This document shows positions 1 through 57,119 of a stretch of 64,000 nucleotides of DNA, in pieces. The stretch is taken from the NCBI RefSeq assembly GCF_013122565.1, contig NZ_CP053258.1. One strand, written 5' to 3'. Every line of letters begins with the position of its first letter. The stretch's first letter is position 1. The translations under genes were made by a program, and so were the position numbers. The notes beneath the pieces were generated by a model, which was not told the DNA's origin, made no database searches, and saw nothing but the letters and a program-made list of their open reading frames with translations. The stretch comes from Escherichia coli (GTDB lineage Bacteria; Pseudomonadota; Gammaproteobacteria; Enterobacterales; Enterobacteriaceae).

Positions 1-527
1 CTATAAAATTTAATATGGGCATCATTTAAAGGAAAAAAGCCATCGCGAAGCTCATAGCATCTTAAGCCCCAGAAGGTGTCATCTTTCATAGCCTCGCTGT
101 CACATTGGATAAATATTGTATCCATTGCATCGGATAACAGTTCATCATCTATTAACAACTGTTTTTCCATCAATTCTGATTGTTTGAAAGCCACGTGCAT
201 AAAAATATTATTGAATATAACAAAATCATTTATTCCAGAATTGCAATACATCATTGTAAAATTCTCGTTGTCGTCTATATCATACAAGTAATACACTTTC
301 TTGTTTTCTACACTGACAATAAAATAGCCATCTAAGTCATGACCAAACACAATGTAATCGCAGGAATTAAACCAATATAACTCATCATAATAAAACTTTA
401 CATCTTGATTTCCATAGGGAATAAGAAGAGATAATTTTATTTTAATTTCATTAATTAAATCGCATGAAGATGAGTTTATTTTTTTGAAAACCTTGGAAGT
501 TTGTAAATCAATTAACTTTATTAACAT
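1..527 (-). CDS. Hypothetical protein, N-terminus complete, C-terminus beyond window start; cytoplasmic, AT-rich
   Basis: Hand translation of minus strand: ATG at 525-527, frame open down to position 3 with no stop (MLIKLIDLQTSKVFKK...GLRCYELRDGFFPLNDAHIKFY, >=175 aa). Not in ORF track because it lacks a stop inside the window. Tandem with the next two ORFs. Confidence 0.4.
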   Translation of the reverse strand, partial: MLIKLIDLQTSKVFKKINSSSCDLINEIKIKLSLLIPYGNQDVKFYYDELYWFNSCDYIVFGHDLDGYFIVSVENKKVYYLYDIDDNENFTMMYCNSGINDFVIFNNIFMHVAFKQSELMEKQLLIDDELLSDAMDTIFIQCDSEAMKDDTFWGLRCYELRDGFFPLNDAHIKFY

Positions 528-586
528 AGAACACCCTGATATGTTAAATAACAAATTTCAACATCTTAAACTAGTTAACAATAACG

Positions 587-1057
587 CTATTTTATTTTCA
601 ATCCACAAGAGAATAAATAATTTAAATATTTATTATTTGCATCGACTAAAAACGGACAAATATCGCAACTAACTTCACTTAGTAAAAATTCCTTATCCAA
701 TATTATGAATTCATGACAAAGCAATATATCAATTAAACCTGCTATATCTTCATTTATATTTGCATGGTTTGTTATAACATCGTTTTTGAATATTATAAGT
801 GCATATTGCCCGACAAAAGACATATATAAAAAGGCAATACCTTCTTGCAAAACAACTTCTAATGAAAAACAAACATCACTGTTTAATTCAGTGTTATCTC
901 TTACATCAAACCGTGAACTCAACTCAGTAATTACGCCTTTATATTTTAATGAGTTATATTTCTCCATCACAAATTCATAATTGGGAAACGCCATATCGAG
1001 ATAAGCATTTTTAATAGCCTGATCAAAGACGATTTTATTTTTCATTATAATCCACAA
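587..1057 (-). CDS. Hypothetical protein (156 aa), no recognisable family, AT-rich
   Basis: ORF track; same strand and short spacers (about 60-75 nt) to neighbouring ORFs; no TM segments evident. Confidence 0.45.
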   Translation of the reverse strand: MWIIMKNKIVFDQAIKNAYLDMAFPNYEFVMEKYNSLKYKGVITELSSRFDVRDNTELNSDVCFSLEVVLQEGIAFLYMSFVGQYALIIFKNDVITNHANINEDIAGLIDILLCHEFIILDKEFLLSEVSCDICPFLVDANNKYLNYLFSCGLKIK

Positions 1058-1133
1058 TATTTATTTCCATAATTAACATTTGCAATACTGTTATTAAAAC
1101 ACATAATTATGGTCAATTTACTAGCATTCCACA

Positions 1134-1538
1134 TTAATGCACATCATGCCCGTTGTTATTTCTAAACATAAAAGATACTGCATGTTCCATTTTATCACTC
1201 AAGGGATAATTATCTTTTGTTGCATATGTAAAATCACTTACTTTGGTTATTAAATTTTTTATAGCATCATCAAGATGCTCAGGAACCAAGGACTCAATAT
1301 CTTCAAACTCACAACCAAGATCAATTATATCTATTAACTCTTTGTCACAACTATTTTTGTGCAAAAGCCTGGAAATAAAAGGTCTAAAAACAAGTAGTTC
1401 AGATTCATCTATAGTTATTGAACCTTCTTTTAGTGAATGTAAAATTCCTGAAAGAAGGATAGCCATAAATTTATCTATATATTTATTATCGATGGTACAA
1501 ACTAACTGCATGATATTCCTTATAACTTTCGCAACCAT
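1134..1538 (-). CDS. Hypothetical protein (134 aa), acidic, AT-rich
   Basis: ORF track; start may be the second Met (about 1511), which removes the overlap with the upstream ORF. Confidence 0.45.
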   Translation of the reverse strand: MVAKVIRNIMQLVCTIDNKYIDKFMAILLSGILHSLKEGSITIDESELLVFRPFISRLLHKNSCDKELIDIIDLGCEFEDIESLVPEHLDDAIKNLITKVSDFTYATKDNYPLSDKMEHAVSFMFRNNNGHDVH

Positions 1539-2218
1539 TGCTTGACGTTGAACAGTTCAAAAACCATCACAACAATTGACCAAAAGAAACAGACAAAATC
1601 AAAGTAAAGCATTAATGCCCCTACAATGGCACAATGCTTCAACGTCCAAGGTTCATCGCTATATAATTTGCGCACATAAAGCTTCAGTGCATTTATTTTT
1701 CTTAAGGCAATGCATGACCATAATAACACAAAGAGGAAACTCATTATCCAAAGATACAAACTATTTAACAAAACGAAATTAGAAACAAAAGAAATACTCC
1801 AGCCGACACCAATCAGTAATAAAACATACCACCGCGATGCCGTATTGATATTAAAACTCAAAGCCAACAGTATACTAAGGAGGAACATTGCCCCACCGAT
1901 GCCAAATAATAACCTGACAAACGCGATCGAAAAAAGGCTTGCTATGAGTATTGCGAATAGACTGATTATGGAAAAATAAATAATACATATTGCTAATGTG
2001 TTTATTTTCTCAATTTTCGTCCTTAATCCGTATCCAAAAATAAGAAGCAAGACAACGGCTAAAAAGAATGGTGCGGTATGTTGATGCGTTGCGGTAATGT
2101 TATAATAATCTGCTATCCATGCAAATCCTGCAGTTACCCATAAACCAACCGCTGTTATCAACCAGATACAGGCCATCATTCTGGTCATTAAAGGCTGTTT
2201 TTTCATTAAACCTGTCAT
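1520..2218 (-). CDS. BI-1/YccA-family multi-pass inner membrane protein paralog (about 233 aa from Met52 of the track ORF)
   Basis: ORF 1520..2371; the N-terminal 44 aa of the track ORF overlap the 3' end of the upstream gene in another frame, so the true start is taken as an internal ATG (2216-2218, GGAAA RBS; alternative ATG 2237-2239 two nt after the upstream stop). C-terminal motif CAIVGALMLYFDF matches the ybhL C-terminus. Confidence 0.55.
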   Translation of the reverse strand: MTGLMKKQPLMTRMMACIWLITAVGLWVTAGFAWIADYYNITATHQHTAPFFLAVVLLLIFGYGLRTKIEKINTLAICIIYFSIISLFAILIASLFSIAFVRLLFGIGGAMFLLSILLALSFNINTASRWYVLLLIGVGWSISFVSNFVLLNSLYLWIMSFLFVLLWSCIALRKINALKLYVRKLYSDEPWTLKHCAIVGALMLYFDFVCFFWSIVVMVFELFNVKQWLRKL

Positions 2219-2241
2219 TGTGATTTTTCCATAAATCATGA

Positions 2242-2955
2242 CTACCACTGAAACCGTGAATGCCTTTGCCAGACAAGCGTTATCGCTATTGCTGCAAGAA
2301 TCCCAAAGAAGCCGATAAAATAGTAATAGAGTGTTAATGCACCTGTAACAGCGCAACGAACCGGACTCCACAACTCTTCGCTATGGCATTTTCCTGCCAG
2401 TTCAAGGAGCTTATTTCGTCCATGCGAGATAATGCCTGACCATAACACAATCATTAAGCAACTTATTACCCAAACGAGTCGTTCACTCATTAATGCGGCA
2501 TTCACGATGATCACCAGGGCCAACCCTGTCAACGTCATCATAATGATAAAACGATGAGAACCAGGATCAACATTAAATAATAAACCGGCCAGCATACTAA
2601 TTAAAAACATCGCGCCCGCAATGCTGAACACAAGGATAATGGCAGGTACAGGAACTAAACTAGCAACGACAATCGCCACCAAAGAGAGTAAAAACAGATA
2701 TATTACGCCTGCGATGGTGGCATTTATCTTGTTGATATACTTACTTAAGCCATACATACAAAGTAATAATAACCCTATGGCGACATACATAGGTGGTGAA
2801 TCATATTTGGTTGCCGTAATTTCGAGATACTTAGCTCCCCAGGCCAGTCCTGCGGTTGCCACCAAACCTAAAGCGGTAATGAGCCATACACCGTTTAATA
2901 TTCTGGCTTCGTGCTGAAATTCATTAGCTATGTTATTTGCTGAGCGCGATTTCAT
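2242..2955 (-). CDS. BI-1/YccA-family inner membrane protein, 237 aa (candidate ybhM ortholog)
   Basis: ORF track; hydrophobic multi-TM protein; C-terminal CAVTGALTLYYYF motif shared with ybhL; length equals my recollection of K-12 YbhM but the assignment is unverified. Confidence 0.6.
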   Translation of the reverse strand: MKSRSANNIANEFQHEARILNGVWLITALGLVATAGLAWGAKYLEITATKYDSPPMYVAIGLLLLCMYGLSKYINKINATIAGVIYLFLLSLVAIVVASLVPVPAIILVFSIAGAMFLISMLAGLLFNVDPGSHRFIIMMTLTGLALVIIVNAALMSERLVWVISCLMIVLWSGIISHGRNKLLELAGKCHSEELWSPVRCAVTGALTLYYYFIGFFGILAAIAITLVWQRHSRFQW

Positions 2956-3024
2956 TATTTTTATATCCTTAAATTAAATATCAATATCTATTCCAATTAA
3001 CGTAATAAAACTCGTCAATTCGCA

Positions 3025-3729
3025 CTACCACACTAAACCATTAATAAAGTCAAGAACTGTTACAGTAATTCTAAAGAGGACGCTTAAAATACTAAAATAG
3101 AGTGTTATTGCCCCAAGAACTATACAGCGAAGAGAACCTGAAATTTCAGAGGTGTCGGCAACACGGATCAAATCTTCCAGTGTTGTTGCTTCACAGGCAG
3201 CCGTAATGCCCCAGATAAAGACAGTCAAAATACTCGCTAACCACACGGAAAAACTGCTGGTAAGGATCAGGTTAACAACAAAAGCAATACTCAAACCACA
3301 GAAAATATATAAATATAACTGTCTGACTGGTGGGATAACCCTATTACTACAACAGCAAATCAGCGCCATTGCGGCAAACATCCCTCCCGTAATTCCCATT
3401 ACCGTCGCTATGCTCGAAAAGGTAAAAAGGCTGGCGAAGAGAAAGCCAATAAGCAGGATTATTAGCAGATAGACCAGACATGCGCCTGATGCATTGAGTC
3501 TTTTCAGGGCGTAGTTTAACCAAAGACCACCTATTATCAGTGCAGCCAAAGCGAAGACAAACGCGCCTGGAGACTTTCGTGACGTAACCCAATGCAAGTG
3601 CTGAAATATCCAGGCACAGCCTGCCGTAGCCCATACTCCAGCAGCTGTTAACCACCAAATGAGAAGCAGCATTTTGCTGAGCGAAGCACTTTTTTGCTGT
3701 AATTGAGTAGCAGTGGATTGTCTGTTCAA
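3025..3729 (-). CDS. BI-1/YccA-family inner membrane protein paralog, 234 aa
   Basis: ORF track; multi-TM; C-terminal CIVLGAITLYFSIL motif; sits between ybhL and the 237-aa paralog. Confidence 0.6.
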   Translation of the reverse strand: MNRQSTATQLQQKSASLSKMLLLIWWLTAAGVWATAGCAWIFQHLHWVTSRKSPGAFVFALAALIIGGLWLNYALKRLNASGACLVYLLIILLIGFLFASLFTFSSIATVMGITGGMFAAMALICCCSNRVIPPVRQLYLYIFCGLSIAFVVNLILTSSFSVWLASILTVFIWGITAACEATTLEDLIRVADTSEISGSLRCIVLGAITLYFSILSVLFRITVTVLDFINGLVW

Positions 3730-3828
3730 ATGCGTTATCTGTCCCTGAAATTACGTAGTGGACATAGTCTGGCATTTGCAGCGACTGAGTTCTCATGAAA
3801 ATGAGCGAAACAGCCTTTATATAATCCG

Positions 3829-3852
3829 AAAAAATCCCGGCACCAGGCCGGG
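3829..3852 (-). terminator. Rho-independent terminator downstream of ybhL
   Basis: GC stem cccggc/gccggg (3836-3841 / 3847-3852) with 5-nt loop; A-run 3829-3834 on plus strand gives the T-run after the hairpin on the minus strand. Confidence 0.65.
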
Positions 3853-3872
3853 ATCAGCAGGAAGAAGAGAAT

Positions 3873-4577
3873 TTAACGGCGGTTGCCGAAGATCCGCAGC
3901 AACATCAGGAACAGGTTGATGAAGTCCAGATACAAGGTTAACGCGCCAAGAATGGAATATTTGCGCAGGTTCGACGTGTCGCGGGTATCAATCTGCTCAC
4001 CCATATTTTTCAATTTCTGAGTGTCATACGCCGTCAATCCGACAAAGACAATCACGCCGATGTAGGTAACTGCCCACATCAATGCTTCGCTTTTCAGCCA
4101 GAAGTTGACCAGCGATGCCAGCACAATGCCGATTAACGCCATAAACAGCATATTGCCAAAGCCGCTTAGATCGCGCTTCGTGGTGTAACCATACAGGCTC
4201 ATTGCGCCGAACATCCCGGCAGTAACGACGAAAGTACTGGCGATAGAAGCAGCGGTATAGACAATGAAAATACTGGAAAGCGTAAGACCCGTCAGCGCCG
4301 AATAAAGCATAAAGAGCATCGTCGTTACACCTGCGCTCAGCTTTTGAATCATCGCTGATAACACAATAACCAATGCTAATTGCGCGATGATCAGACCGAT
4401 TAAAAAGACACGGTTAGTGAACAACAGCTCCATCACGGCCGCGGAATTAGCCGCATACCAGGCAACAAATGCGGTCAGCAACAAGCCAACGGTCATCCAG
4501 CCATAGACTTGCGCCATATAAGTTTGCAAGCCAGCCCGGGGTTGTACAATTGAATCAGAACGTGGGAATCTGTCCAT
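3873..4577 (-). CDS. ybhL: Inner membrane protein YbhL (BI-1 family), 234 aa from MDRFPRS
   Basis: ORF 3873..4658 with internal start; recognised sequence and position next to moaE. Confidence 0.85.
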   Translation of the reverse strand: MDRFPRSDSIVQPRAGLQTYMAQVYGWMTVGLLLTAFVAWYAANSAAVMELLFTNRVFLIGLIIAQLALVIVLSAMIQKLSAGVTTMLFMLYSALTGLTLSSIFIVYTAASIASTFVVTAGMFGAMSLYGYTTKRDLSGFGNMLFMALIGIVLASLVNFWLKSEALMWAVTYIGVIVFVGLTAYDTQKLKNMGEQIDTRDTSNLRKYSILGALTLYLDFINLFLMLLRIFGNRR

Positions 4578-4676
4578 GACGATCTCCTGAAGATATAAGG
4601 AATATCTTAAGGATACTGCAAAATGATGAGGCTGTGCATCGACGCAGCGTAAACGCATGTACTGAGCGGTGAAATT

Positions 4677-4703
4677 GCCGGATGCAGCGGTGCCTTATCC
4701 GGC
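4677..4703. repeat. REP-like palindromic element (gccggatg...ccttatccggc)
   Basis: Typical E. coli REP consensus in the ybhL-moaE spacer. Confidence 0.5.
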
Positions 4704-4713
4704 TAACAAAAAA

Positions 4714-5166
4714 CTACCAGCGTTTTGCTGCCTGCTGATCGCTCTCCCGAGCTTCGACCCAGCGGTCGCCTTCAGGCGTGGCTTCGCGCTTCCAAAACGG
4801 TGCGCGGGTTTTGAGATAATCCATAATAAACTGCCCGGCTTCAAACGCACTGCTGCGATGCGCACTGGTGACACCGACAAAAACGATTTCATCGCCCGGC
4901 CATAATTCCCCGATGCGGTGAATCACCGTGACGCGCCCCAGCGGCCAGCGGTTACGCGCTTCATAGACAATTTCTGCCAGTGCTTTTTCAGTCATCCCCG
5001 GATAGTGTTCGAGGGTTAATGCTTTGACGCTGTCGCCCAGGTTATGGTTGCGCACCTTACCGGTAAAGGTGACTACCGCACCGTCTTCGTCACACTCAGC
5101 CAGCCACGGGTACTCTTCACCTACACTGAACGGCTGCGGGCCGACAACAATTTTGGTTTCTGCCAT
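4714..5166 (-). CDS. moaE: Molybdopterin synthase catalytic subunit MoaE
   Basis: 150-aa ORF, recognised sequence, operon position. Confidence 0.93.
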   Translation of the reverse strand: MAETKIVVGPQPFSVGEEYPWLAECDEDGAVVTFTGKVRNHNLGDSVKALTLEHYPGMTEKALAEIVYEARNRWPLGRVTVIHRIGELWPGDEIVFVGVTSAHRSSAFEAGQFIMDYLKTRAPFWKREATPEGDRWVEARESDQQAAKRW

Positions 5167-5167
5167 C

Positions 5168-5413
5168 TTAACCTCCGGTTACCGGCGGGAAGAAAGCTAC
5201 TTCGTCGCCGTCAGTCAGCGAATGGTCAAAACTCACCAGCGTCTGGTTGACGGCAGCCAGCAATTTGCCATCTTCCAGCGCCAGCGCCCAGCGTTCGCTC
5301 TGCGCAGCCAGATGCTGGCGTAACGCTTCAACGGTTGGGAAATCCGCAGCCACTTCGGTTGCATCTGTTCCCACCAACTCGCGCACCTGGGCGAAAAAAA
5401 GAACTTTAATCAT
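5168..5413 (-). CDS. moaD: Molybdopterin synthase sulfur-carrier subunit MoaD (81 aa, C-terminal GG)
   Basis: ORF 5168..5476 with internal start [13 protein letters not shown]; ends ...PPVTGG. Confidence 0.92.
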
Positions 5414-5891
5414 CCGCTTCCACCTTAAAGTCACCCGACTTTCCGCCGCTCTTCGCCAGCAAACGTACCGGACCAATCACCATATCTTTTTGCACCGCTT
5501 TACACATGTCATAAATGGTCAGCGCCGCCACGGAGGCCGCAGTTAACGCTTCCATTTCGACACCGGTTTTCCCGGTCAGGCGGCATAAGGTTTCTATACG
5601 TACCCGATTGTGCTCCGGCTCAGCCTGTAAATTGACTTCAACTTTGCTGAGCATCAGCGGGTGACACAGCGGGATCAGATCCCACGTGCGTTTTGCCGCC
5701 TGAATACCGGCAATACGCGCAGTGGCAAATACGTCGCCTTTGTGGTGGCGACCATCAATAATCATCGCCAGCGTCTCGCTGCGCATGGTGACAAAGGCTT
5801 CGGCGCGCGCTTCACGCACGGTTTCTGCTTTGGCGGAGACATCCACCATGTGCGCTTCGCCAGCGGCGTTGATATGGGTCAGTTGCGACAT
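5406..5891 (-). CDS. moaC: Cyclic pyranopterin monophosphate synthase MoaC
   Basis: 161-aa ORF, recognised. Confidence 0.93.
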
Positions 5892-5893
5892 AC

Positions 5894-6406
5894 TTATTTC
5901 TTCAAATGTGGATGGAAATTACACGGACGCGTACGGGCATCCAGCTGCGGCGCGATGATATTTTCCCATGCGGTACGGCACGCTTTGGTCGAACCCGGCA
6001 TGGCAAAAATCAGCGTTTTGTTAGCGACGCCCGCTACCGCACGAGATTGTAACGTGGAAGTGCCAATCTCTTCGAACGACAACATCCGGAACACTTCACC
6101 AAAACCTTCCACTTCACGGTCGAACAACGGCAGCAGCGCTTCAGGAGCCTGATCACCTTCCGTCAGGCCAGTACCACCCGTAATCAATACCACTTGTACA
6201 TCGTCGCTGGCGATCCACGCAGATACCTGAGCGCGAATAGCGTAGCGGTTTTCTTTCACAATGGCTTTATCGACAACGTGATGGCCCGCTTCTTGCGCCG
6301 AATCGCGCAAATAGTGACCGGAGGTATCGTCTTCTTCACCGCGCCGATTAGAAACCGTAAGAATAGCAATACGGGTCGGGATAAATTCAGTGCTTACCTG
6401 ACTCAT
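5894..6406 (-). CDS. moaB: Molybdenum cofactor biosynthesis protein MoaB
   Basis: 170-aa ORF, recognised. Confidence 0.93.
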
Positions 6407-6427
6407 CTGATCTCTCCTTTTGACGTT

Positions 6428-7417
6428 TTAGCCGCCAATGTACGATAAGTTTTGTGTAATACCGGTGTTGTTTTGATGCAGGAAATGGGTCTGTTTCTTC
6501 TCCCGCAGCGCCGCTGAAATACGCGCTTCCAGCGCCTGTTGCTGGGTATCGTCTTCCAGCAGATCGCGCAGGTTAACGCCGCCCTCACCAAACAGGCAGA
6601 GATGGAGTTTACCAATGGAGGAAACGCGCAGGCGGTTGCAAGTGGCGCAGAAGTCTTTTTCATACGGCATGATAAGGCCAATCTCTCCAGCGTAATCCGG
6701 ATGACAAAAGACTTGCGCGGGACCGTCGCTGCGTTGACGTAATTGGTGGATCCAGCCGCGACGCAGTAGCTCGTCACGCAGAACCTGACCAGAGATGTGA
6801 TGCTTACGGAAGAGCTCGCTGCCCTCGCCCGTTTCCATCAGTTCGATGAAACGCAGCTGGATGGGACGATGCTGGATCCAGTCCAGAAAGGTGTCGAGCT
6901 GGTGATGGTTGACATCGCGCATCAGCACGGTATTGACTTTGACCTTCTCAAAACCGGCCTCAAATGCAGCATCGATCCCTGCCATGACCTGGTTGAATTT
7001 ATCCTGCCCGGTAATGGCATGAAACTGGCGAGCGTCGAGACTATCAACACTGACGTTAATGCCAGTAAGTCCCGCATCGCGCCAGTTCGCCACGTCGCGT
7101 TCCAGACGGTAACCATTGGTGGTGACCGCAATCTGACAGATAGCGTTGTTTTCCCGCACAGCGGCGATGATATCGGTAAAGTCGCGGCGTAAAGACGGCT
7201 CACCGCCTGTCAGGCGCACTTTTTCGGTGCCCAGACTGGCGAAGGCGCGCGTAACCCGGCGAATTTCATCGACGGTAAGGAAGCCTTTATTGGTGACGCC
7301 GCTCGGTTTGTAGCCTTCCGGCAGGCAGTAGGTGCAACGAAAGTTACACACATCGGTAATCGACAGGCGCAAGTAGTAAAACTTACGCGCAAATGCATCA
7401 GTCAGTTGTGAAGCCAT
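6428..7417 (-). CDS. moaA: GTP 3',8-cyclase MoaA (radical SAM), 329 aa
   Basis: ORF 6428..7498 with start at MASQLTDAF; CxxxCxxC motif (CNFRCTYC). Confidence 0.93.
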
Positions 7418-7419
7418 GT

Positions 7420-7570
7420 ACACCTTTCCAGATACGGGAGGCGAAGTCATTTCTTCCTTCGCCCTGGTGGCAATCTTTACGAGCATTGTCACGGCCAAAG
7501 CACCGTATCAGTTGACCCAGGTGCAGAGGCTAGAGTGTTTAGTAGTTAAGCCGATACTAGCGTGTAAACG
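7420..7570 (-). ncRNA. moaA 5' leader; expected position of the molybdenum cofactor (Moco) riboswitch
   Basis: Established knowledge that the E. coli moaABCDE leader carries the Moco RNA motif; leader present here but structure not folded by me; boundaries approximate. Confidence 0.5.
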
Positions 7571-7753
7571 AGATTTTTACCATCCACACTTTCGCTATGT
7601 AATCATGTATATAGCGTCATGATCGTGCTATTTCGCTACAGAATAAGGGAAAATGGCGGTTTTACTTTGATATACATCATCAGGGAGGCATAGCGTACAT
7701 CGTCCTTTAGAGGTAGAAGAAAATAGTTTGTATCCTCAATATTGGCAGGTTAA

Positions 7754-8722
<969 letters not shown>

Positions 8723-8778
8723 TGGGAAGCCGAAAGAAAATTCCTGCTTCCCATTGAAGACAAAGTACACGTTGTTCA

Positions 8779-8877
8779 TGCCGGATGCGGCGTGAACGCC
8801 TTATCCGGCCTACAAACCGCGCAAATTCAATATATTGCGGAGAAAATGTAGGCCTGATAAGCGTAGCGCATCCGGCT
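8779..8877. repeat. REP/BIME-like palindromic repeats between convergent ybhK and uvrB
   Basis: ccggatgcggcgtgaacgccttatccggcctac ... gcctgataagcgtagcgcatccggc. Confidence 0.6.
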
Positions 8878-8913
8878 GTTTTCCGTTTGTCATCAGTCTT
8901 CTTCGCTATCCTG

Positions 8914-10935
8914 TTACGATGCGGCAATAAACAACTCACGCAACTGATGCAACTGGTCACGAATTTGCGCCGCTTCTTCGAACTCCAGATTCTGCGCGTG
9001 TTGCATCATCAACCCTTCCAGTTCATGGATCTTCTGCTGCAACGCTTTAGGCGACATATCCATCGGCACATTATCCGGCTCAACAATCGGTCGCGATTTT
9101 ACTCTGCCCTTCGCTTTGGTTTTGGCGATGTTCTGCCCCAGCGCCAGGATATCGACCACTTTCTTGTTCAAGCCTTGCGGCGTAATGCCGTGTTCCTCGT
9201 TGTACTTCTGCTGTTTCTCGCGGCGACGTTCGGTTTCGCCAATCGCTTTCGCCATTGATGGGGTGATCTTATCGCCGTAGAGAATCGCTTTACCGTTAAC
9301 GTTACGTGCCGCACGACCAATGGTCTGGATCAACGAACGTTCGGAACGCAGGAAGCCTTCTTTGTCAGCGTCGAGGATCGCCACCAGCGACACTTCCGGC
9401 ATATCCAGACCTTCGCGCAGTAAGTTGATCCCTACCAGCACGTCGAACTCACCCAGACGCAAGTCGCGGATGATTTCCATACGCTCGACGGTGTCGATAT
9501 CCGAGTGAAGATAACGCACGCGCTCGCCATGTTCTTCAAGATATTCCGTGAGATCTTCCGCCATTCGCTTGGTCAGTGTGGTGACCAGCACGCGTTCGTT
9601 AATTGCCGCTCGCTGACGAATCTCCGAAAGAAGATCATCAACCTGTGTCGCCACCGGCCGCACTTCAATTATCGGGTCAAGCAATCCGGTTGGACGCACC
9701 ACCTGATCCACCACATCGCCGCCGGATTTTTCCAGCTCATAATTACCCGGCGTCGCCGAAACATAGATGGTTTGCGGCGCTAATGCTTCGAACTCTTCAA
9801 ATTTCAGCGGACGGTTATCCAGCGCCGATGGCAGGCGGAAGCCGTACTCCACCAGCGTCTCTTTACGCGCCCGGTCACCGCGATACATGCCGCCAATTTG
9901 CGGAATGGTGACGTGAGATTCATCGACGACCAGCAGCCCATCGGCAGGCAGGTAATCAAACAGCGTCGGCGGTGGCTCACCCGGTCCACGACCGGAGAGG
10001 AAGCGCGAGTAGTTTTCAATCCCCGAACAGTAGCCCAGCTCGTTCATCATCTCCAGATCAAACTGGGTACGCTGGGTCAGCCGCTGCTCTTCCAGCAGTT
10101 TGTTGTTTTCCAACAGCACCTTGCGTCTGGCGGCCAGTTCTTCTTTGATCTCCTCCATCGCCTGTACGATGCGCTCACGTGGCGTGACGTAGTGCGTTTT
10201 CGGGTAGATGGTAAAACGTGGAATCGTGGAAATAATCTGCCCGGTTAGCGGGTCAAATAACGACAATCGTTCCACTTCCTCGTCAAACAGTTCCACGCGA
10301 AGTGCAATGTCATCCGATTCTGCCGGGAAGATATCTATCACCTCGCCACGAACGCGGAAAGTACCACGCTGGAATGCCTGATCATTACGAGCGTATTGCA
10401 ACTCCGCCAGTCGGCGCAGGATCGCACGTTGATCGATAATCATGCCGACCGTGAGGTGGAGCATCATCTTGAGATATAAATCAGGGTCGCCCAGACCATA
10501 AATCGCGGAAACAGAGGCCACTACAACCACATCACGCCGCTCCAGCATCGCTTTGGTGGCGGATAAACGCATCTGCTCAATATGTTCGTTAACCGAGGCA
10601 TCTTTCTCAATGAAGGTGTCGGAACTCGGTACATAGGCTTCCGGCTGATAGTAGTCGTAGTAGGAAACGAAATACTCCACCGCGTTTTCCGGGAAGAACT
10701 CTTTCATTTCGCCATAGAGCTGGGCCGCCAGCGTTTTGTTGGGCGCCAGCACCATCGTTGGACGCTGTAGGTCAGCAATGACATTGGCGATGGTGAAGGT
10801 TTTCCCGGAGCCCGTCACGCCAAGTAACGTCTGGTGCGCCAGGCCATCTTCCAGCCCCTCTTCGAGACGTCGAATCGCCTCTGGCTGATCGCCAGAAGGT
10901 TTAAAAGCGGAATTCAGTTTGAACGGTTTACTCAT
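8914..10935 (-). CDS. uvrB: Excinuclease ABC subunit B UvrB
   Basis: 673-aa ORF; [21 protein letters not shown]..., helicase motifs (GVTGSGKT). Confidence 0.96.
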
Positions 10936-11011
10936 GAGTCGCTACCTGAAGGAGTTGGGCGGGCAGGTATGTAATTTTACTCGTCGTACTTAATTATGCC
11001 AACAAATTATA

Positions 11012-11027
11012 CTGGATAAAAAAACAG
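11012..11027. promoter_or_regulatory. LexA (SOS) box in uvrB promoter
   Basis: ctggataaaaaaacag = CTG-N10-CAG SOS-box pattern upstream of uvrB. Confidence 0.8.
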
Positions 11028-11331
11028 TTCATCACCATAATATTTCTGATACAGCGTAAACTCCGCTGTCAATCATGAGCAAAATTTACTCTGTGGCGAG
11101 ATAAAACTCCGGCCTTACCGGGTTATCCCCAAAGCAACGGCTTTTTTAACATTTGTCAAGATGAGTGATGACAGTTTTATGGCAAGAGATGCCTCGTTAG
11201 TGACTGCCATTGCAATTATCTAACCATTTAAAAAATAAAAGATATTTCTTTGAGCCGTCTTTAACGCCAATTCGCGTGCAAGCCGCGTATTCTCTCGCTT
11301 GCCTCGTGTTTTCTAACTCTAATACACATGG

Positions 11332-11354
11332 TTATCCACAGGAATAGTGGATAA
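11332..11354. promoter_or_regulatory. Inverted pair of DnaA boxes upstream of uvrB (P3 region)
   Basis: ttatccaca at 11332-11340 and gtggataa at 11347-11354. Confidence 0.6.
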
Positions 11355-11513
11355 CTGTCTGCAGCCCCTATCCCCCGCCGCCTGGGCAATTCCCACATTC
11401 GCCGCATGATGCGGAAGTAAAATTTTTTTCGTGATTATTTTAGAATTTAATTGGTTAAATTGAAGTCAGTCGAAGACGCGATCTCGCTCGCAATTTAACC
11501 AAATACAGGATGG

Positions 11514-12191
11514 CTACAACAAGGCAAGGTTTATGTACTTTCCGGTTGCCGCATTTTCTGGATTTTCTGCAAGCCAGGGGATCTCTCCCAGCAGCGGCGC
11601 GGGAATCATGCGGGTGAGCGTGGTCATATATTCAGCGTGACGTTTTCCTGGAGGCGTGACATCGTTCGCCACCCAACCCGCCAGAGTGAGTCCGGCGTGT
11701 TGTATTGCCTGTGCCGTCAACATTGCGTGATTAATACAGCCGAGTTTCACGCCAACCACCAGTATCACCGGCAATTGTTCCTGTGTTACCCAATCCGCAA
11801 AAGTGAAAGTGTCAGAAAGGGGCGTAAACCAGCCGCCAGCGCCTTCCACTAACACCCAGTCAGCCTGTTGTTCAAGCGCGCGTAATCCGGAGCTCAATAC
11901 CGATGATTCTATCGGCCTGTCCTCTTGTGCGCTGATGATGTGCGGCGAGGTGGGTTCTGCGAAGGTGTACGGGTTTACCGTGGCGTAATCGAGATGCAGG
12001 CTGCTGTGGCGTTGTAACGCCAGCGCGTCGCTGTTACGCAAACCTTCCGGGGTTATTTCACTGCCGGAGGCTACGGGTTTATAACCTGCTGTCCGATAAC
12101 CTGCGTTCTTTGCTGCCTGCAAAAGTGCGCAACTGACGACGGTTTTCCCCACTTCGGTGTCCGTTCCGGTGACAAAATAACGTTTACTCAC
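11514..12191 (-). CDS. bioD: Dethiobiotin synthetase BioD (GTG start)
   Basis: ORF 11514..12197; recognised ([16 protein letters not shown]); GTG at 12189-12191 overlaps the bioC stop. Confidence 0.92.
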
Positions 12192-50913: not shown

Positions 50914-52482
50914 TTAGCGTGCCGGCTGAGTAGTCGTGGAAGACTGCTCAAAGTGATAGCGACCGGTTTTCAGGCTGCTTGGGCCGAGGCGTGCAAACTT
51001 GAACATTAAGAACAATTCTGCCACCAGGAACAGGGTATACAGGCCGCAAATCAGCACCATTGAGAAGATGAGATCGCCTGCGGTCAGTGACGAGTTCGCC
51101 ACAGCTGTCGGCAGCACTTCACCGATAGCCCACGGTTGGCGGCCATATTCAGCCACGAACCAGCCCGCTTCTACAGCAATCCACGGCAGCGGAATACCGT
51201 ACAGCGCGGCGCGCAGCAGCCATTTTTTCTCGCCAATGCGGTTGCGGATGACACTCCAGAAAGAGAGCGCGATGATTGCCAGCAGCAGGAAGCCACACGC
51301 CACCATGATACGGAACGCGAAGTACAGCGGCGCTACACGCGGAATGGAGTCTTTGGTTGCCTGTTGAATCTGAGCTTCAGTCGCATCAGCCACGTTTGGC
51401 GTATAGCGTTTCAGCAGCAGACCGTAACCGAGGTCTTTCTTCATGCTATTGAACTGGTCACGAACCGCCTGGTCGGTAGAACCAGAACGCAGTTGTTCGA
51501 GCAGAGAGTAAGCCTTCATCCCGTTACGAATGCGTTCTTCATGCTGCACCATCAGTTCTTTCAGGCCGATAACTGGAGTATCCACGGAACGCGTTGCAAT
51601 GATGCCCAGCGCGTAAGGGATCTGGATCGCAAATTTGTTCGTCTCCTCTTCCTGATCAGGAATGCCGAACAGAGTAAAGGCAGCAGGCGCAGGTTGCGTT
51701 TCCCACTCGGCTTCAATAGCAGCCAGTTTGGTTTTCTGCACGTCGCCCATTTCGTAACCAGATTCATCACCCAGAACAATAACAGACAGAACGGCAGCCA
51801 TACCGAAGCTGGCAGCGATAGCAAAGGAGCGTTTAGCGAAGGCGAAGTCACGACCTTTCAGCATATACCATGCGCTGATACCGAGGATGAACATCGCGCC
51901 AGTCACATAACCAGACGCTACAGTGTGAACGAATTTCACCTGAGCAACCGGGTTAAGCACCAGCTCGGAGAAGCTCACCATCTCCATACGCATAGTTTCA
52001 AAGTTGAAATCGGACGCGATTGGGTTTTGCATCCAGCCGTTCGCAACCAGAATCCACAGTGCGGACAGGTTTGAACCGAGCGCCACCAGCCAGGTGACAC
52101 ACATATGCTGAACTTTACCCAGACGATCCCAACCGAAGAAGAACAGACCTACAAAGGTGGATTCGAGGAAGAAGGCCATCAGACCTTCGATTGCCAGCGG
52201 CGCACCGAAGATATCCCCTACATAGTGGGAATAGTAAGACCAGTTAGTCCCGAACTGGAACTCCATAGTCAGACCGGTAGCCACACCCAGAGCGAAGTTG
52301 ATACCAAACAACTTGCCCCAGAACTTGGTCATATCTTTATAAATCTGTTTGCCGGAAAGGACGTAGACCGTTTCCATAATGGCCAGCAGGAACGCCATAC
52401 CGAGCGTCAGTGGCACAAAAAGGAAGTGGTACATCGCGGTCAAGGCAAACTGTAAGCGCGACAGTTCGACTATATCTAACAT
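50914..52482 (-). CDS. cydA: Cytochrome bd-I ubiquinol oxidase subunit I CydA, 522 aa
   Basis: ORF 50914..52485, start at second Met ([20 protein letters not shown]). Confidence 0.96.
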
Positions 52483-52819
52483 CATGACTCCTTGCTCATC
52501 GCATGAAGACTCCGAGAGTGAACCCCGTTAGAAAGGGTCACACGCATGCCCCAATACAAAATTATTTGCTCGCCTCTATCGTTGCCATTTCATCAAAAGA
52601 GGAAAAGACAATGATAAAAAAGTTGCAAATATGTTAATGAATAAACCAAATTGATCCCGTAATTATATTACGCCGCAAAATCCTTACAATAAACAGGTTT
52701 TTATTGAGCAAATTTGCATTTTTCGACAGTGATCAATTTATAGCGAAATTGTCACGATCTCACCAATTTGATCTACGACAATTTATCGTGTTTTGCAGAT
52801 TTTTTTCAAGAATTAAAAA

Positions 52820-52833
52820 TTGATTTATATCAA
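52820..52833. promoter_or_regulatory. FNR-consensus palindrome in the cydAB upstream region
   Basis: ttgatttatatcaa = TTGAT-N4-ATCAA exactly, about 340 nt upstream of cydA; the cydAB promoter is known to be FNR/ArcA controlled. Confidence 0.7.
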
Positions 52834-53287
52834 AACTAACCAAATATGTTAATTATGTATAAACCATAGATCATTAGTGATTTTATTGTTAATTTATTGT
52901 GAAATATTTATGCAACACAATTATTACAATGAAAAGGTATAGATAAAAAACCAGTGTTGTATTTAACAGAACCGCCTTATCCACTTTTTATAATACCAAT
53001 TGATTAGAGTAGCCAATTTGTTGCTATTTTACATAACATATTTTTATCAAAGTTAATTGATTGTTGCCTTTATGAGCACCGACCGTAAGCCCGTTATGTT
53101 ATTGTTTCATTGGTAATAATCACTTAAATGTATCGATGGAACAGGTATGACTTAGCGGGAGTGATTGTTTCTGAGTGAACAGGGGCCACTTTTGCCTGAT
53201 AAATGAAAAATGAGCGATTTTTGCAAGTTAGTTTTTCTATAGCCGTGTACGCTCAGCGCCTCGCTTGATTACAATGAGGTTGCTGCT

Positions 53288-54232
53288 ATGAGTCCTGATA
53301 ATATCGGTTCGGCTGTCAATCGCTTCTCAGGTTGGCCATCTAATGATCCTCTAAAAACAGATAAAGAATCAACGACATCACCCGTGACAGTGCAGGTAAT
53401 AAAGATGATTGCCGCCATCCTTGACCCACATCGGATAGTCGTTGGAATCGATACACTTTATACAACGCAGCGCGAAACATTTACCTCAGAGAGTCAACAG
53501 CTCATTGAATCAGCATTGCAAACACTTCATGTGATGAATTTAAATAACCTGGAAACAAATCGCGATGAAGAAGGTCACTATCTGGCTTTTGAATATAACG
53601 TTGACACCTCTGACAGAATAACCGTTTCTGCTTACAATGAAAAAAATCCTGGCTGCTATGGCCAATGTCTTTTAATACAGGATGACGAAACAGACTTATT
53701 CAACCTGATAAAAATTAAAATTTTTGAAGCCAGGCATAATTATGTCGCTCAATTGATGAGCGATCCAGAATTTATGTTCAAATTCAGTTATAGCGCTCAA
53801 CAAAATAGATTAGAACCTCATCTTCTGGTTCCCGCTTATTTCCCTCTAAAAACAAACGAACCGGTTACGCAAGAGGATGTACTGTTACTTTATCGTTTCT
53901 TTAAAATGAATGATGATTTTAACAAATTAACATCAGATGAATACATGAGTATCCTGACACCTCTGATGAAGTGTGAGCGTAGCGTCCACGACAACAACAG
54001 GTATGTGACGGGCAAAGATACCCTTCTTCTGGACTATCCTCCTTCTGGTAACCAGATACATTTCCATGTTTTCCCTGACGAATCAGCAACACTAGTCCTT
54101 TATTTTTCAAACAATGACCTTGAATATTTCGTCTTTGAAAGAGATATTCCGAGCCAGTATCGCTTTTTCAAAATGTTTACCAATCTGGCACTGGTTATAG
54201 ATCAGTTAACCGAAGCCCATAAAATACTTTAA
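53288..54232 (+). CDS. Hypothetical protein (314 aa), AT-rich, no family recognised
   Basis: ORF track; GAGG RBS 7-10 nt upstream; soluble, Ser/Pro/Asn-rich N-terminus. Confidence 0.55.
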   Translation: MSPDNIGSAVNRFSGWPSNDPLKTDKESTTSPVTVQVIKMIAAILDPHRIVVGIDTLYTTQRETFTSESQQLIESALQTLHVMNLNNLETNRDEEGHYLAFEYNVDTSDRITVSAYNEKNPGCYGQCLLIQDDETDLFNLIKIKIFEARHNYVAQLMSDPEFMFKFSYSAQQNRLEPHLLVPAYFPLKTNEPVTQEDVLLLYRFFKMNDDFNKLTSDEYMSILTPLMKCERSVHDNNRYVTGKDTLLLDYPPSGNQIHFHVFPDESATLVLYFSNNDLEYFVFERDIPSQYRFFKMFTNLALVIDQLTEAHKIL

Positions 54233-54312
54233 TTTTCTATATATCCCTATGGCAAATATTGCTAAACAATGCCTGGGGATTAATTTTTATTACTCACGGA
54301 AAGATTTAAATA

Positions 54313-54735
54313 ATGATATCATCTCAGATCTCTTTCAGTACTCTTCCTGTCAATGCAACATACGCTTCAGAGACAACAGTTGACACACAAAAATTCTCTG
54401 ACATCCTCTACTCAGCGGGGTGTTCCCTAAAGGATATGGCTTATCTGAGCAGATGTCTGGCATCAATACACCCGACTATCGCCAAAAACATTTATGAAAC
54501 AGAAAATCTCAGCGATCAAAAATTACTGCATATTGATTGCCGTAGTACAAATGACATCAAGATAAATATCTTTTTTGGTCAGCAACGAGAAGGATTAATT
54601 GAAATTAGTTCTGACACAGTTATTTTTTCGATACTGTCTTCATTGATTGACTCCGCCATTTCTAAATTTCAACATCAAAACCCGGTTAACGGTTCAGTTA
54701 ATCCTGAACTATTGTATGAGGATTATACTGATTAA
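54313..54735 (+). CDS. Hypothetical small acidic protein (140 aa), AT-rich
   Basis: ORF track; 80 nt downstream of the 314-aa ORF on the same strand; Ser-rich N-terminus. Confidence 0.5.
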   Translation: MISSQISFSTLPVNATYASETTVDTQKFSDILYSAGCSLKDMAYLSRCLASIHPTIAKNIYETENLSDQKLLHIDCRSTNDIKINIFFGQQREGLIEISSDTVIFSILSSLIDSAISKFQHQNPVNGSVNPELLYEDYTD

Positions 54736-55281
54736 ATCCACCCTGTCGCGAAAAATGGCCTGCGTTATTGCCAGACGTAATAAAACCTTTGATTAACGTT
54801 ACTCATACTGATAGCACCTTCATGTACCTCTCTTTTTTACGCAAATCAAAAGAGCTAACGAAGGTCATAATTCGCATGAATCATTAACCATTTGTTATTT
54901 TCAACATTACTTTTACATTAAGCAGAAATGAATGGTAGTGAAATTCGACTTAAATTTTATGAAATGCATTTACTTATGGCTAAACCCATATCACTAAAAT
55001 GCAAATTAGAAGTAGATCACAAATATCTCAATACACCAAATCAAGTTAATTTTAAAAATTTAACATTCATGACATTAGTTGACATAACACACTGAATTAA
55101 CATGGAAATTTAAAAACACACTTTAAACAATCATTTCCCGAAAGACATTTTGAAAATAGATCAATTGCAACATTACGGTCAGATAAAGACACTCCTGTGA
55201 TATTAAACCTGTGCCGTTATGAACGGCCATAAATACGACGTGTGTAACTTATTTTACTCTCTGTCTTACAAAGGATTACCC

Positions 55282-55731
55282 ATGAAGAAAGCAACACTTG
55301 TGATTGGCGTTATTGGCGCGGACTGCCATGCAGTAGGCAATAAAGTTCTGGACCGCGTTTTTAGCAACCACGACTTCAGAGTCATTAATCTGGGCGTAAT
55401 GGTCAGCCAGGACGAATATATTGATGCTGCCATTGAAACTGGCGCTGACGCGATTGTCGTCTCCTCTATCTATGGGCATGGCGATATCGACTGTCTGGGC
55501 ATGCGCGAACGCTGCATCGAGCGTGGACTGGGGGACATCCTGCTCTATGTGGGCGGTAACCTGGTGGTAGGAAAACATGACTTCGCTGACGTGGAAAACA
55601 AGTTCAAAGAGATGGGATTTGATCGCGTCTTTGCCCCAAGTCATGACTTAGAAGAGGTTTGTCAGCTGATGGCCCACGATATCAACCAACGTCATGACGT
55701 TGATACTCGCATTCTTGAAGAGGCAATCTGA
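55282..55731 (+). CDS. glmS: Glutamate mutase (methylaspartate mutase) S / sigma subunit, B12-binding, 149 aa
   Basis: ORF 55219..55731 with start at [22 protein letters not shown] (cobalamin-binding DxHxxG-type motif); family assignment from recognised conservation. Confidence 0.85.
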
Positions 55732-57119
55732 TGCAAATCGTCTCTGTCGATATTGGATCGACGTGGACCAAAGCAGCCCTCTTCACCCGGGAGGGGGACG
55801 CGTTAACGTTGGTTAACCACGTACTGACCCCAACCACCACCCATCATCTGGCGAAGGGGTTTTTCTCCAGCCTGAACCAGGTGTTAAACGTAGATAATGC
55901 CCTCCCCCTGTTAAACAGCGGTGAGGTTGCATTGAAGTATTCCTCCTCTGCCAAAGGTGGGCTGGCGGTTGCCGCAATGGGATTGGTGCCTTCTATCACC
56001 CTGGAAACCGCGAAAGTAACCGCTCACTCTGCGGGTGCTAAAATTGCGCAATATTACGCCTACAAGCTGAACCGCCGTGATATCCAGGCACTGGAAGAAA
56101 CGCAGCCCGATATTCTCTTGTTCACCGGCGGCACCGACGGCGGAGAAGAAAGCTACGGACTGAATAACGCCCGTGTGCTGGCAGAATCCAAACTCGACTG
56201 CGCCATTATTTATGCCGGAAACCGGGATATTCAGGACGAGGTGCAGGAGATCCTCGGACATAAAGACCTGACCATCGTCGACAACGTTCTGCCCGATCTT
56301 GACCATCCGAACCCTTTAGCCGCACGCCAGGCTATCTGCGACATATTCCTTAAACGCATCGTTAAAGGGAAAGGGCTGGATGTCATTGTTGATAAAACAG
56401 GCGAAGAACCAATGCCGACACCATGGACGGTCTTTGAACTGGTTAAGGCAATCAGTAACGTCGATCACAGCTGGAAAGAGTTCATGCTGATCGACATGGG
56501 CGGCGCAACCACCGATGTCTATTCCGCCTGTGCCAACACGCTCTCGCCCGACACCGTTTTACACGGCGTACCGGAACCCTTCGTAAAACGGACGGTGGAA
56601 GGCGATCTGGGAATGCGCGTCTCGGCAATGGTGGTTGGTGAAAGTGCGAAAGAGTTAGTCAATGTAAATTTTGCTCAGCAACCCGCACAGCTGGACGCTT
56701 TTTATCATTACCTCCGTCATTTAGTCGCTCATCCCGACTACTTACCCGCGAATGCAGAAGAAAAATATTTCGATACCGTCCTGGCCGGACTGTGTGTGGG
56801 TTATGCCACCGAAAGACATGCGGGCACCAAAAAAGAGGTCTGCACCTGCGTCGGCAATGTCGATTTACAAATGGGACGTGACCTGACAACCGTGCGTAAA
56901 GTCGTCGGATCCGGCGGATGGCTCTCGCGTGCCAGTCAGTTCGATATGCATCACTGGTTGAAATACCGCGAGTTAAACGACGACGGTAAACGCATTCTCT
57001 TACCGACCGAATTTGAATATTACCGCGATTCCCGGGGGCTATTACCACTGCTGGCAAACGTCGCCAGAGTCGATCCGCTGGCCGCCGCGCGCACCAGTAT
57101 TCAATGCTTAACCCTATAA
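55731..57119 (+). CDS. glmL: Glutamate mutase-associated protein GlmL/MutL (ASKHA-like)
   Basis: 462-aa ORF between S and E subunit genes ([18 protein letters not shown]); start shares one nt with the preceding stop. Confidence 0.75.
   Translation: MQIVSVDIGSTWTKAALFTREGDALTLVNHVLTPTTTHHLAKGFFSSLNQVLNVDNALPLLNSGEVALKYSSSAKGGLAVAAMGLVPSITLETAKVTAHSAGAKIAQYYAYKLNRRDIQALEETQPDILLFTGGTDGGEESYGLNNARVLAESKLDCAIIYAGNRDIQDEVQEILGHKDLTIVDNVLPDLDHPNPLAARQAICDIFLKRIVKGKGLDVIVDKTGEEPMPTPWTVFELVKAISNVDHSWKEFMLIDMGGATTDVYSACANTLSPDTVLHGVPEPFVKRTVEGDLGMRVSAMVVGESAKELVNVNFAQQPAQLDAFYHYLRHLVAHPDYLPANAEEKYFDTVLAGLCVGYATERHAGTKKEVCTCVGNVDLQMGRDLTTVRKVVGSGGWLSRASQFDMHHWLKYRELNDDGKRILLPTEFEYYRDSRGLLPLLANVARVDPLAAARTSIQCLTL

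Follow-up and report, generated by a model that had tools for sequence, protein, structure and literature searches.

A rare, maximal allele of the ybhL–ybhN islet with three divergent YbhM-like Bax inhibitor-1 family paralogs in Escherichia

Results

Gene content of the islet

The 64,000-nucleotide stretch of Escherichia coli contig NZ_CP053258.1 analysed here (assembly GCF_013122565.1; hereafter the window) carries, next to the conserved gene ybhL, a run of genes that continues to the window edge. Three of them, which we call P2, P3 and P4, encode multi-pass membrane proteins of the Bax inhibitor-1 (BI-1) family, as does ybhL itself. The locus is a rare, maximal allele of an array already annotated by RefSeq as Bax inhibitor-1 family genes. 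Between ybhL and ybhN, Enterobacteriaceae have a hypervariable chromosomal islet, and the window appears, from the sequences compared, to hold its fullest known version. A preliminary description of this DNA had reported four tandem BI-1-family genes between positions 4577 and 1520, and all four are indeed complete minus-strand open reading frames (ORFs) that match PF01027 (Bax1-I).

The PF01027 matches of the three paralogs cover nearly all of the model's 207 positions (P2, E=1.8e-13, positions 3-203; P3, E=1.5e-21, positions 3-205; P4, E=9.7e-8, positions 3-205), with YbhL and YccA serving as positive controls. Since each ORF spans the whole Pfam model, no two of them can be halves of a single frameshifted gene. 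Comparison of a YbhM-like with a YbhL-like profile by hhalign gives 99.5% probability of homology (E=3.9e-23, 210 columns). Hydropathy finds six to eight hydrophobic segments per protein in all four paralogs, and the AlphaFold2 (AF2) model of P4 consists of seven long helices, with a predicted local distance difference test score (pLDDT) of 87.8 and a predicted template modelling score (pTM) of 0.85. When this model was compared with the AlphaFold database (AFDB) using Foldseek, the best matches were members of the YbhM-like clade (template modelling score, TM, 0.77-0.95), followed by generic BI-1 and Lifeguard proteins. P2, P3 and P4 are intact seven-helix membrane proteins. The common C-terminal GALTLY-type signature noted earlier is present in all four, as GALTLYLDF (ybhL), GAITLYFSI (P2), GALTLYYYF (P3) and GALMLYFDF (P4). 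The paralogs match PF01027 only and have no immunity-family domain. Scans of all array genes against NCBIfam, PADLOC and PHROG returned nothing except weak YbhL matches, and P2, P3 and P4 did not match the YccA equivalog model NF007765, on which YbhL scored 23 bits against a cut-off of 353.

Which of the copies is ybhM had been left to alignment. The locus and protein alignments and the tree identify it as P3, the middle gene, at 91% amino acid (aa) identity to K-12 YbhM. YbhL of the window is 100% identical in aa sequence to its K-12 counterpart. As the preliminary description had stated, K-12 does not carry the same four genes; it has two, ybhL and ybhM, followed by the convergent ybhN.

The moaABCDE genes (7498..4714) lie upstream of ybhL, and all genes of the islet are on the minus strand. 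P4 begins within a few nucleotides of the P3 stop, as had been seen, at a TAG-TC-ATG junction at 2244..2237. The array also continues beyond the fourth paralog, a point overlooked earlier, into a DUF3969 gene, an orphan gene and a gene of the SUKH-4 immunity family, the last being a separate adjoining gene. From P2 onward the gaps are 69, 2 (23 with the ATG at 2218), 8, 88 and 59 nt. Judged on gene spacing alone, it is plausible that the array and the distal genes are co-transcribed. The hairpin between ybhL and P2 has a predicted RNA folding energy of -18.5 kcal/mol (z = -3.1), and its stem is kept with compensatory changes in other strains. Folding and compensatory pairing suggest that ybhL is a separate transcription unit, and the hairpin probably acts as a terminator.

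The SUKH-4 gene is 83% identical in aa sequence to a gene of strain 042 that RefSeq names 'SUKH-4 family immunity protein'. The orphan protein has no match in Pfam, NCBIfam, PHROG, PADLOC or PDB; three homolog clusters were found, and the sole named cluster is from E. coli. A second allele set of the DUF3969, orphan and SUKH-4 genes exists that is only 78% identical.

Table 1. Features of the islet in the window, listed outward from ybhL
Feature	Position	Strand	Description
ybhL	3873..4577	-	234 aa; conserved BI-1/TMBIM gene; PF01027 match
Intrinsic-terminator-like hairpin	3827..3855	-	9-bp GC-rich stem followed by U6; between ybhL and the paralog array
P2	3025..3729	-	234 aa, TTG start; YbhM-like BI-1 paralog
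P3	2242..2955	-	237 aa; ybhM orthologue
P4	1520..2239	-	239 aa from ATG 2239, or 232 aa from ATG 2218; rare YbhM-like paralog
DUF3969 gene	1134..1511	-	125 aa; PF13108, E=6.3e-17; start 8 nt past the P4 stop
Orphan gene	587..1045	-	152 aa; soluble protein
SUKH-4 immunity-family gene	1..527	-	PF14435, E=6.9e-6; incomplete, crosses the window edge

The start of P4 can be placed at either of two ATG codons. In the one close E. coli homologue, RefSeq uses the equivalent of ATG 2218; the E. albertii gene favours a position near the first, at 2239. For P2, a longer form starting at ATG 3765 is closed at codon 5 by a TAA (3753-3751) in the window and in strains PT62, PI7 and 2014C-3075. At this position 2020CK-00188 and 2017-02-2CC have CAA, and as a result of this TAA/CAA polymorphism the annotation of P2 switches between 246-aa products and 234-aa products with a TTG start. 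A further ORF of 149 aa, beginning with ATG, overlaps the 5' half of P2 in another frame (window 3347-3796, minus strand). The database calls P0050, P0055, P0059, P0066, P0067, P0078 and P0084 begin in the frame of this ORF and enter the P2 frame at varying points. They are frameshifted P2 alleles or assembly errors.

The YbhM-like clade

When 1.84 billion representative proteins were searched exhaustively with a hidden Markov model (HMM) and clusters were looked up as well, the YbhM-like group was found in only seven genera: Escherichia, Salmonella, Kluyvera, Superficieibacter, Pseudocitrobacter, Phytobacter and Kosakonia. Below this group, HMM scores fall to generic YbhL-type BI-1 proteins. 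A peptide-pattern scan of genome contigs, using narrow patterns, found six loci, including two added loci from cryptic clades, and no new genera. The YbhM-like gene lies between ybhL and ybhN or ybhQ in all long contigs examined, the one exception being a second Salmonella copy that adjoins an insertion sequence (IS) element.

A neighbour-joining (NJ) tree sets the YbhM-like clade apart from YbhL as a monophyletic group. Within it P3 pairs with P4 as its sister (36% identity), and P2 is placed nearer to the Kluyvera (38%) and Salmonella (31%) classes. Pairwise identities among P2, P3 and P4 are 25-36%, and P2 and P4 are 23-36% identical to K-12 YbhM. YbhL, for its part, is 87% identical between Escherichia and Salmonella. 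At identities of 25-36%, the duplications that produced the paralogs must be ancient. Across the whole clade, 32 alignment columns are invariant.

Salmonella enterica carries a YbhM-like gene followed by two multi-pass membrane proteins of about 202 and about 186 aa (L008 7001-8908; L009 1087-2986). This three-gene module occurs there in two divergent copies, one at the ybhL locus and the other beside the IS element together with Sel1-repeat, DUF1266 and DjlB_C genes. On a Pseudocitrobacter contig and another enterobacterial contig (L013 850-5500; L014 7100-9800), the ybhL-ybhN interval contains one or two YbhM-like genes, with small ORFs interspersed. One P4-class protein from NCBI, P0004, has an in-frame insertion in which the eight residues VTLLHCYI are repeated four times inside a transmembrane helix.

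Cassette structure and distribution among strains

The window was compared by BLASTN with the loci of K-12, 042, 2020CK-00188, PT62, PI7 and E. albertii. Across these six loci, P2 and P4 are present or missing as whole units whose borders fall at or near gene borders. The P2 module corresponds to window 3828-2988 and is missing in K-12, 042 and E. albertii; the P4 module corresponds to window 2248-1520. At the module junctions in the window and the six compared loci we saw no flanking repeats, integrase or IS element.

Frequencies were counted over 5426 complete E. coli genomes. Of these, 5395 have a detectable ybhM, and in 4787 at least 80% of the gene is present. P2 occurs in 748 (14%), P4 in a single genome (0.02%) and the DUF3969 gene in 23; all three distal genes are found together in five. 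None of the 5426 covers at least 80% of window 1-5200. The core genes moa, yvcK, uvrB and bioD (window 4700-12000) are no more than 97.1% identical to those of any of these genomes, which places the window in a somewhat divergent Escherichia lineage, distinct from both cryptic-clade genomes used for comparison (about 92% identity).

The layout between ybhL and ybhN differs from strain to strain. K-12 has ybhM, and PI7 has P2 and a split ybhM. PT62 and 2014C-3075 both carry P2, ybhM, DUF3969 and a small ORF (75 aa and 73 aa, respectively), and 2017-02-2CC has P2, a frameshifted ybhM, DUF3969 and a small ORF of 73 aa. In 042, a ybhM with an internal stop is followed by DUF3969, the orphan, SUKH-4 and a small ORF (73 aa). 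2020CK-00188 has P2, ybhM, P4 and a small ORF, also of 73 aa, and EC42405 retains DUF3969, the orphan and SUKH-4 with no intact YbhM-like gene. The window brings P2, ybhM, P4, DUF3969, the orphan and SUKH-4 together. Between ybhM and DUF3969, exactly where the window has P4, PT62 (L007 4363-4762) contains an insert of about 340 bp that we take to be an ERIC-like (enterobacterial repetitive intergenic consensus) repeat. In E. albertii (L005 5419-7080), a 553-aa membrane protein of the sulfatase family (PF00884) stands between ybhL and ybhM, and ybhN-clsB-ybhP are missing from the far side of the islet.

Age, selection and base composition

Nonsynonymous (dN) and synonymous (dS) divergence were estimated by the Nei-Gojobori method. 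dN/dS is 0-0.04 for ybhL, 0.30-0.43 for P2 (0.63 for the closest pair, window versus 2020CK-00188, at a dS of 0.012), 0.18-0.43 for ybhM and 0.19-0.22 for P4, where the comparison of the window with E. albertii gives 0.19. On these values P2-P4 are real genes under purifying selection weaker than that on ybhL, and the paralog proteins evolve roughly ten times faster than YbhL.

E. albertii has a gene at the position of P4 that is 76% identical to it in aa sequence. In the comparison of the window with E. albertii, dS values are 0.68 (P4), 0.68 (ybhL), 0.47 (ybhM) and 0.91 (DUF3969). The equal dS of P4 and ybhL indicates that P4 has been in the lineage for as long as the conserved ybhL near it. 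Escherichia sp. MOD1-EC7003, a member of a cryptic clade, aligns to the window at 92% identity over one unbroken 2959-bp segment that includes P2. A mobile-element origin was considered and dropped: tblastn against phages found no copies, and the matches in a plasmid collection were all typed as non-mobilizable, mostly in records of 0.5-5 Mb. These matches are probably mislabelled chromosomal pieces.

The preliminary description had also noted a stepwise fall in GC content from ybhL outward, which is borne out by whole-gene values of 0.488, 0.435, 0.427 and 0.358. The three distal genes lie lower still, at 0.296, 0.277 and 0.295, and the whole window is at 0.50. GC content at third codon positions (GC3) is 0.61 in ybhL, 0.42 in P2, 0.43 in P3 and 0.39 in P4. 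The fall had been read as successive acquisition or duplication and divergence. Of these two readings, ancient duplication with divergence agrees with our results. Recent successive acquisition does not, because the paralogs form a single Enterobacteriaceae clade at one locus, mobile copies are lacking in the phage and plasmid collections, the dS of P4 equals that of ybhL, and P2 is co-linear in a cryptic clade.

Sensor positions and the N-terminal tail

TMBIM proteins of the BsYetJ type are pH-sensitive Ca2+ leak channels (PDB 4PGR). In BsYetJ, D171 and D195 are said, by Chang et al. in 2014, to form the aspartate pair of the pH sensor. HMMER aligns YbhL D185 and D218 to these residues. At the two positions YbhL has D/D, P2 has E/S, P3 has G/Y, P4 has K/D and YccA has E/S, so that each of P2-P4 has lost at least one of the two aspartates of the TMBIM pH sensor. 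In most other members of the clade the first position is occupied by E or K, and the second by S, G or C. YbhM also has an N-terminal tail of 14-20 residues. Among 15 YbhM alleles, this cytoplasmic tail is the most variable part of the protein, with an entropy of 1.02 against a mean of 0.32.

Other features of the window

Further along the window, positions 52001-57119 form a low-GC stretch (0.40) that adjoins cydA and then contains methylaspartate mutase genes (subunit S, 55219-55731; GlmL, 55731-57119), which are presumably missing from K-12. Two ORFs lie in this low-GC stretch near cydA, at 53288-54735. A molybdenum cofactor (Moco) riboswitch precedes moaA (7405-7549, minus strand, 102 bits), and the ES036/CssrF small RNA (sRNA) family has a match at 8814-8855 on the plus strand (43 bits).

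Discussion

On comparison of the sequences, we favour an ancestral multi-copy array with differential, cassette-wise loss over stepwise acquisition. A ybhL-like gene would have been duplicated in tandem in some enterobacterial ancestor, and the resulting array would already have been multi-copy in the ancestor of Escherichia. Later losses would have differed between lineages, leaving K-12 with ybhM only. Rather than recent import, the low and falling GC may record AT-biased drift under weak selection in a region that is dispensable. YbhM-type proteins are probably no longer pH-gated cation leaks. They would more likely be YccA-like, serving in the inner membrane as binding partners or decoys of FtsH/HflKC or another membrane machine. 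Each paralog could have its own specificity, and the hypervariable cytoplasmic N-terminal tail would engage the partner. We propose this role because the sensor residues are lost, the tail is hypervariable, and YccA and TMBIM5 provide a precedent: YccA binds and inhibits FtsH and is also an FtsH substrate, and mitochondrial TMBIM5 likewise inhibits the FtsH homologue AFG3L2 (PMC9379554). The partner or decoy mechanism, drawn by analogy, is probably the weakest step. Taken together, an ancestral, differentially trimmed array whose products have a YccA-like partner or decoy role is in our judgement the best explanation, and we hold it with moderate confidence.

Several observations weigh against this explanation. 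The K-12 ybhL-ybhM spacer has no P2 deletion scar beyond the common terminator and ribosome-binding region, so the preference for loss over gain rests on distribution and dS and not on relics. ybhM is often a pseudogene, with an internal stop in 042, a split in PI7 and a frameshift in 2017-02-2CC; such disruption fits dispensability, and it could mean that the gene has little function. The paralogs fail to match the YccA equivalog model. Lastly, the literature searched (ybhM/ybhL, DUF3969, and Bax inhibitor with immunity protein) held no functional study of any YbhM-type protein and no paper on the function or evolution of the ybhL-ybhM array.

Because SUKH-4 and DUF3969 genes stand in the same tightly spaced, low-GC array, a second explanation is that the locus is an orphan immunity or protection islet. 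The paralogs would then be membrane-embedded protectors against inter-bacterial toxins, collected together with SUKH-4 as in poly-immunity loci; they might shut out toxins whose entry depends on FtsH or some other inner-membrane protein, or they might neutralise toxins that act on the membrane. SUKH-4 is a family proposed to consist of immunity proteins, and SUKH loci often hold divergent tandem paralogs and supernumerary immunity genes (PMC3113570). The paralogs are likewise fast-evolving, variable in presence and strain-specific, and the islets of other genera interleave YbhM-like genes with small ORFs. In addition, the CdiA-EC536 and CdiA-ECL toxins need FtsH of the target cell (PMC7690452), and the BI-1 relative YccA inhibits FtsH. 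However, in the window and the related loci read, no toxin, Rhs, CdiA, colicin or secretion gene lies beside the array. The neighbours in the window and in 12 related loci from seven genera are moa, ybhN-clsB-ybhP, an IS element and DUF1266/DjlB genes, with no toxin linkage. The BI-1 paralogs themselves have no PADLOC or immunity-family matches, and their gene-wide dN/dS is well under 1. Known membrane immunity proteins against ionophore toxins of contact-dependent growth inhibition (CDI) are two-helix hairpins of 72-100 aa rather than seven-transmembrane (7-TM) proteins (PMC11630599). The gene sets are also separable: EC42405 has DUF3969, the orphan and SUKH-4 but no intact YbhM-like gene, and K-12 is the reverse. 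As strains with either set alone exist, an obligatory functional link between the BI-1 and SUKH-4 genes was discarded. An immunity islet is unlikely in our view, although it fares best among the alternatives.

A bolder form of the same thought is that the YbhM-type paralogs constitute an unrecognised 7-TM protective class. They would be TMBIM scaffolds without channel activity, each blocking a different toxin at the inner membrane; one way would be to mask or modulate an entry factor such as FtsH. We consider this speculative and rather improbable. Were it true, the ybhL-ybhN islet would be a chromosomal poly-immunity locus common to several Enterobacteriaceae, in which SUKH-4 and small immunity-like genes also take part.

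It is also possible that the extra copies are functionless relics, redundant duplicates that drift towards pseudogenes and persist by chance. ybhM and P2 are often disrupted, through an internal stop, a split gene, frameshifts and many truncated database proteins, and the long-form start of P2 is closed by a stop in the window. Low GC and relaxed constraint fit this account as well. Nevertheless, all three ORFs are intact and of full length in the window, and a dN/dS of 0.19-0.43 at dS values up to 0.68 implies purifying selection since E. coli and E. albertii split. The 32 columns that are invariant across the clade argue in the same direction. We therefore regard chance persistence of relics as a doubtful explanation.

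Successive horizontal acquisition, with each paralog and then the AT-rich distal genes inserted from ever more AT-rich donors, would account for the stepwise fall of GC and GC3, for paralogs well under the GC of the window, for the sharp cassette-like module borders and for the great rarity of P4 and the distal genes in E. coli, but we judge it very unlikely, given a clade found only in Enterobacteriaceae and at the ybhL locus, the lack of phage copies and genuine plasmid copies, dS values against E. albertii that are similar in magnitude for P4, DUF3969 and ybhL, flank-like identity of the co-linear P2 in the cryptic clade, and junctions free of integrase, IS element and repeats.

If the ancestral, differentially trimmed array is the right explanation, YbhM, a y-gene of K-12, would be the lone survivor of a multi-copy, fast-evolving TMBIM array of Enterobacteriaceae that lies beside immunity-family genes. 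Two hypotheses are thereby opened, YccA-like modulation of FtsH and protection from toxins, for which P2, P3 and P4 offer a natural allelic series. The locus would also be an example of a foreign-looking, AT-rich region that is in fact old and vertically inherited, which cautions against reading GC gradients as an order of acquisition. If the paralogs have no special function, the islet is a case of ordinary pan-genome variation.

Among known systems, the closest is K-12 YbhM (b0787), a Bax1-I inner-membrane protein. P3 is its orthologue, with the same position after ybhL and the same length, and P2 and P4 belong to the same clade. However, K-12 has a single copy, and P2 and P4 are separate classes. 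With TMBIM proteins of the YbhL/BsYetJ type, the paralogs share full-length Pfam and profile-profile homology, a prediction of seven helices, and a last helix that contains the GALTLY motif. YccA is of the same superfamily, also lacks the aspartate pair (E/S, as in P2) and has a cytoplasmic N-terminal tail. The paralogs do not match NF007765, however, and are only 13-15% identical to YccA. SUKH-type poly-immunity loci (Zhang, Iyer and Aravind 2011) resemble the islet in their tandem divergent paralogs and strain-specific content, and the islet includes a SUKH-4 gene; here, in contrast, the repeated genes encode 7-TM BI-1 proteins and not SUKH domains, with no toxin gene linked. The CdiI proteins of CDI ionophore toxins are likewise inner-membrane proteins, highly polymorphic and about 30% identical within a group, but they are encoded next to cdiA and are far smaller than the paralogs, which have about 235 aa, seven helices and no toxin partner (PMC11630599).

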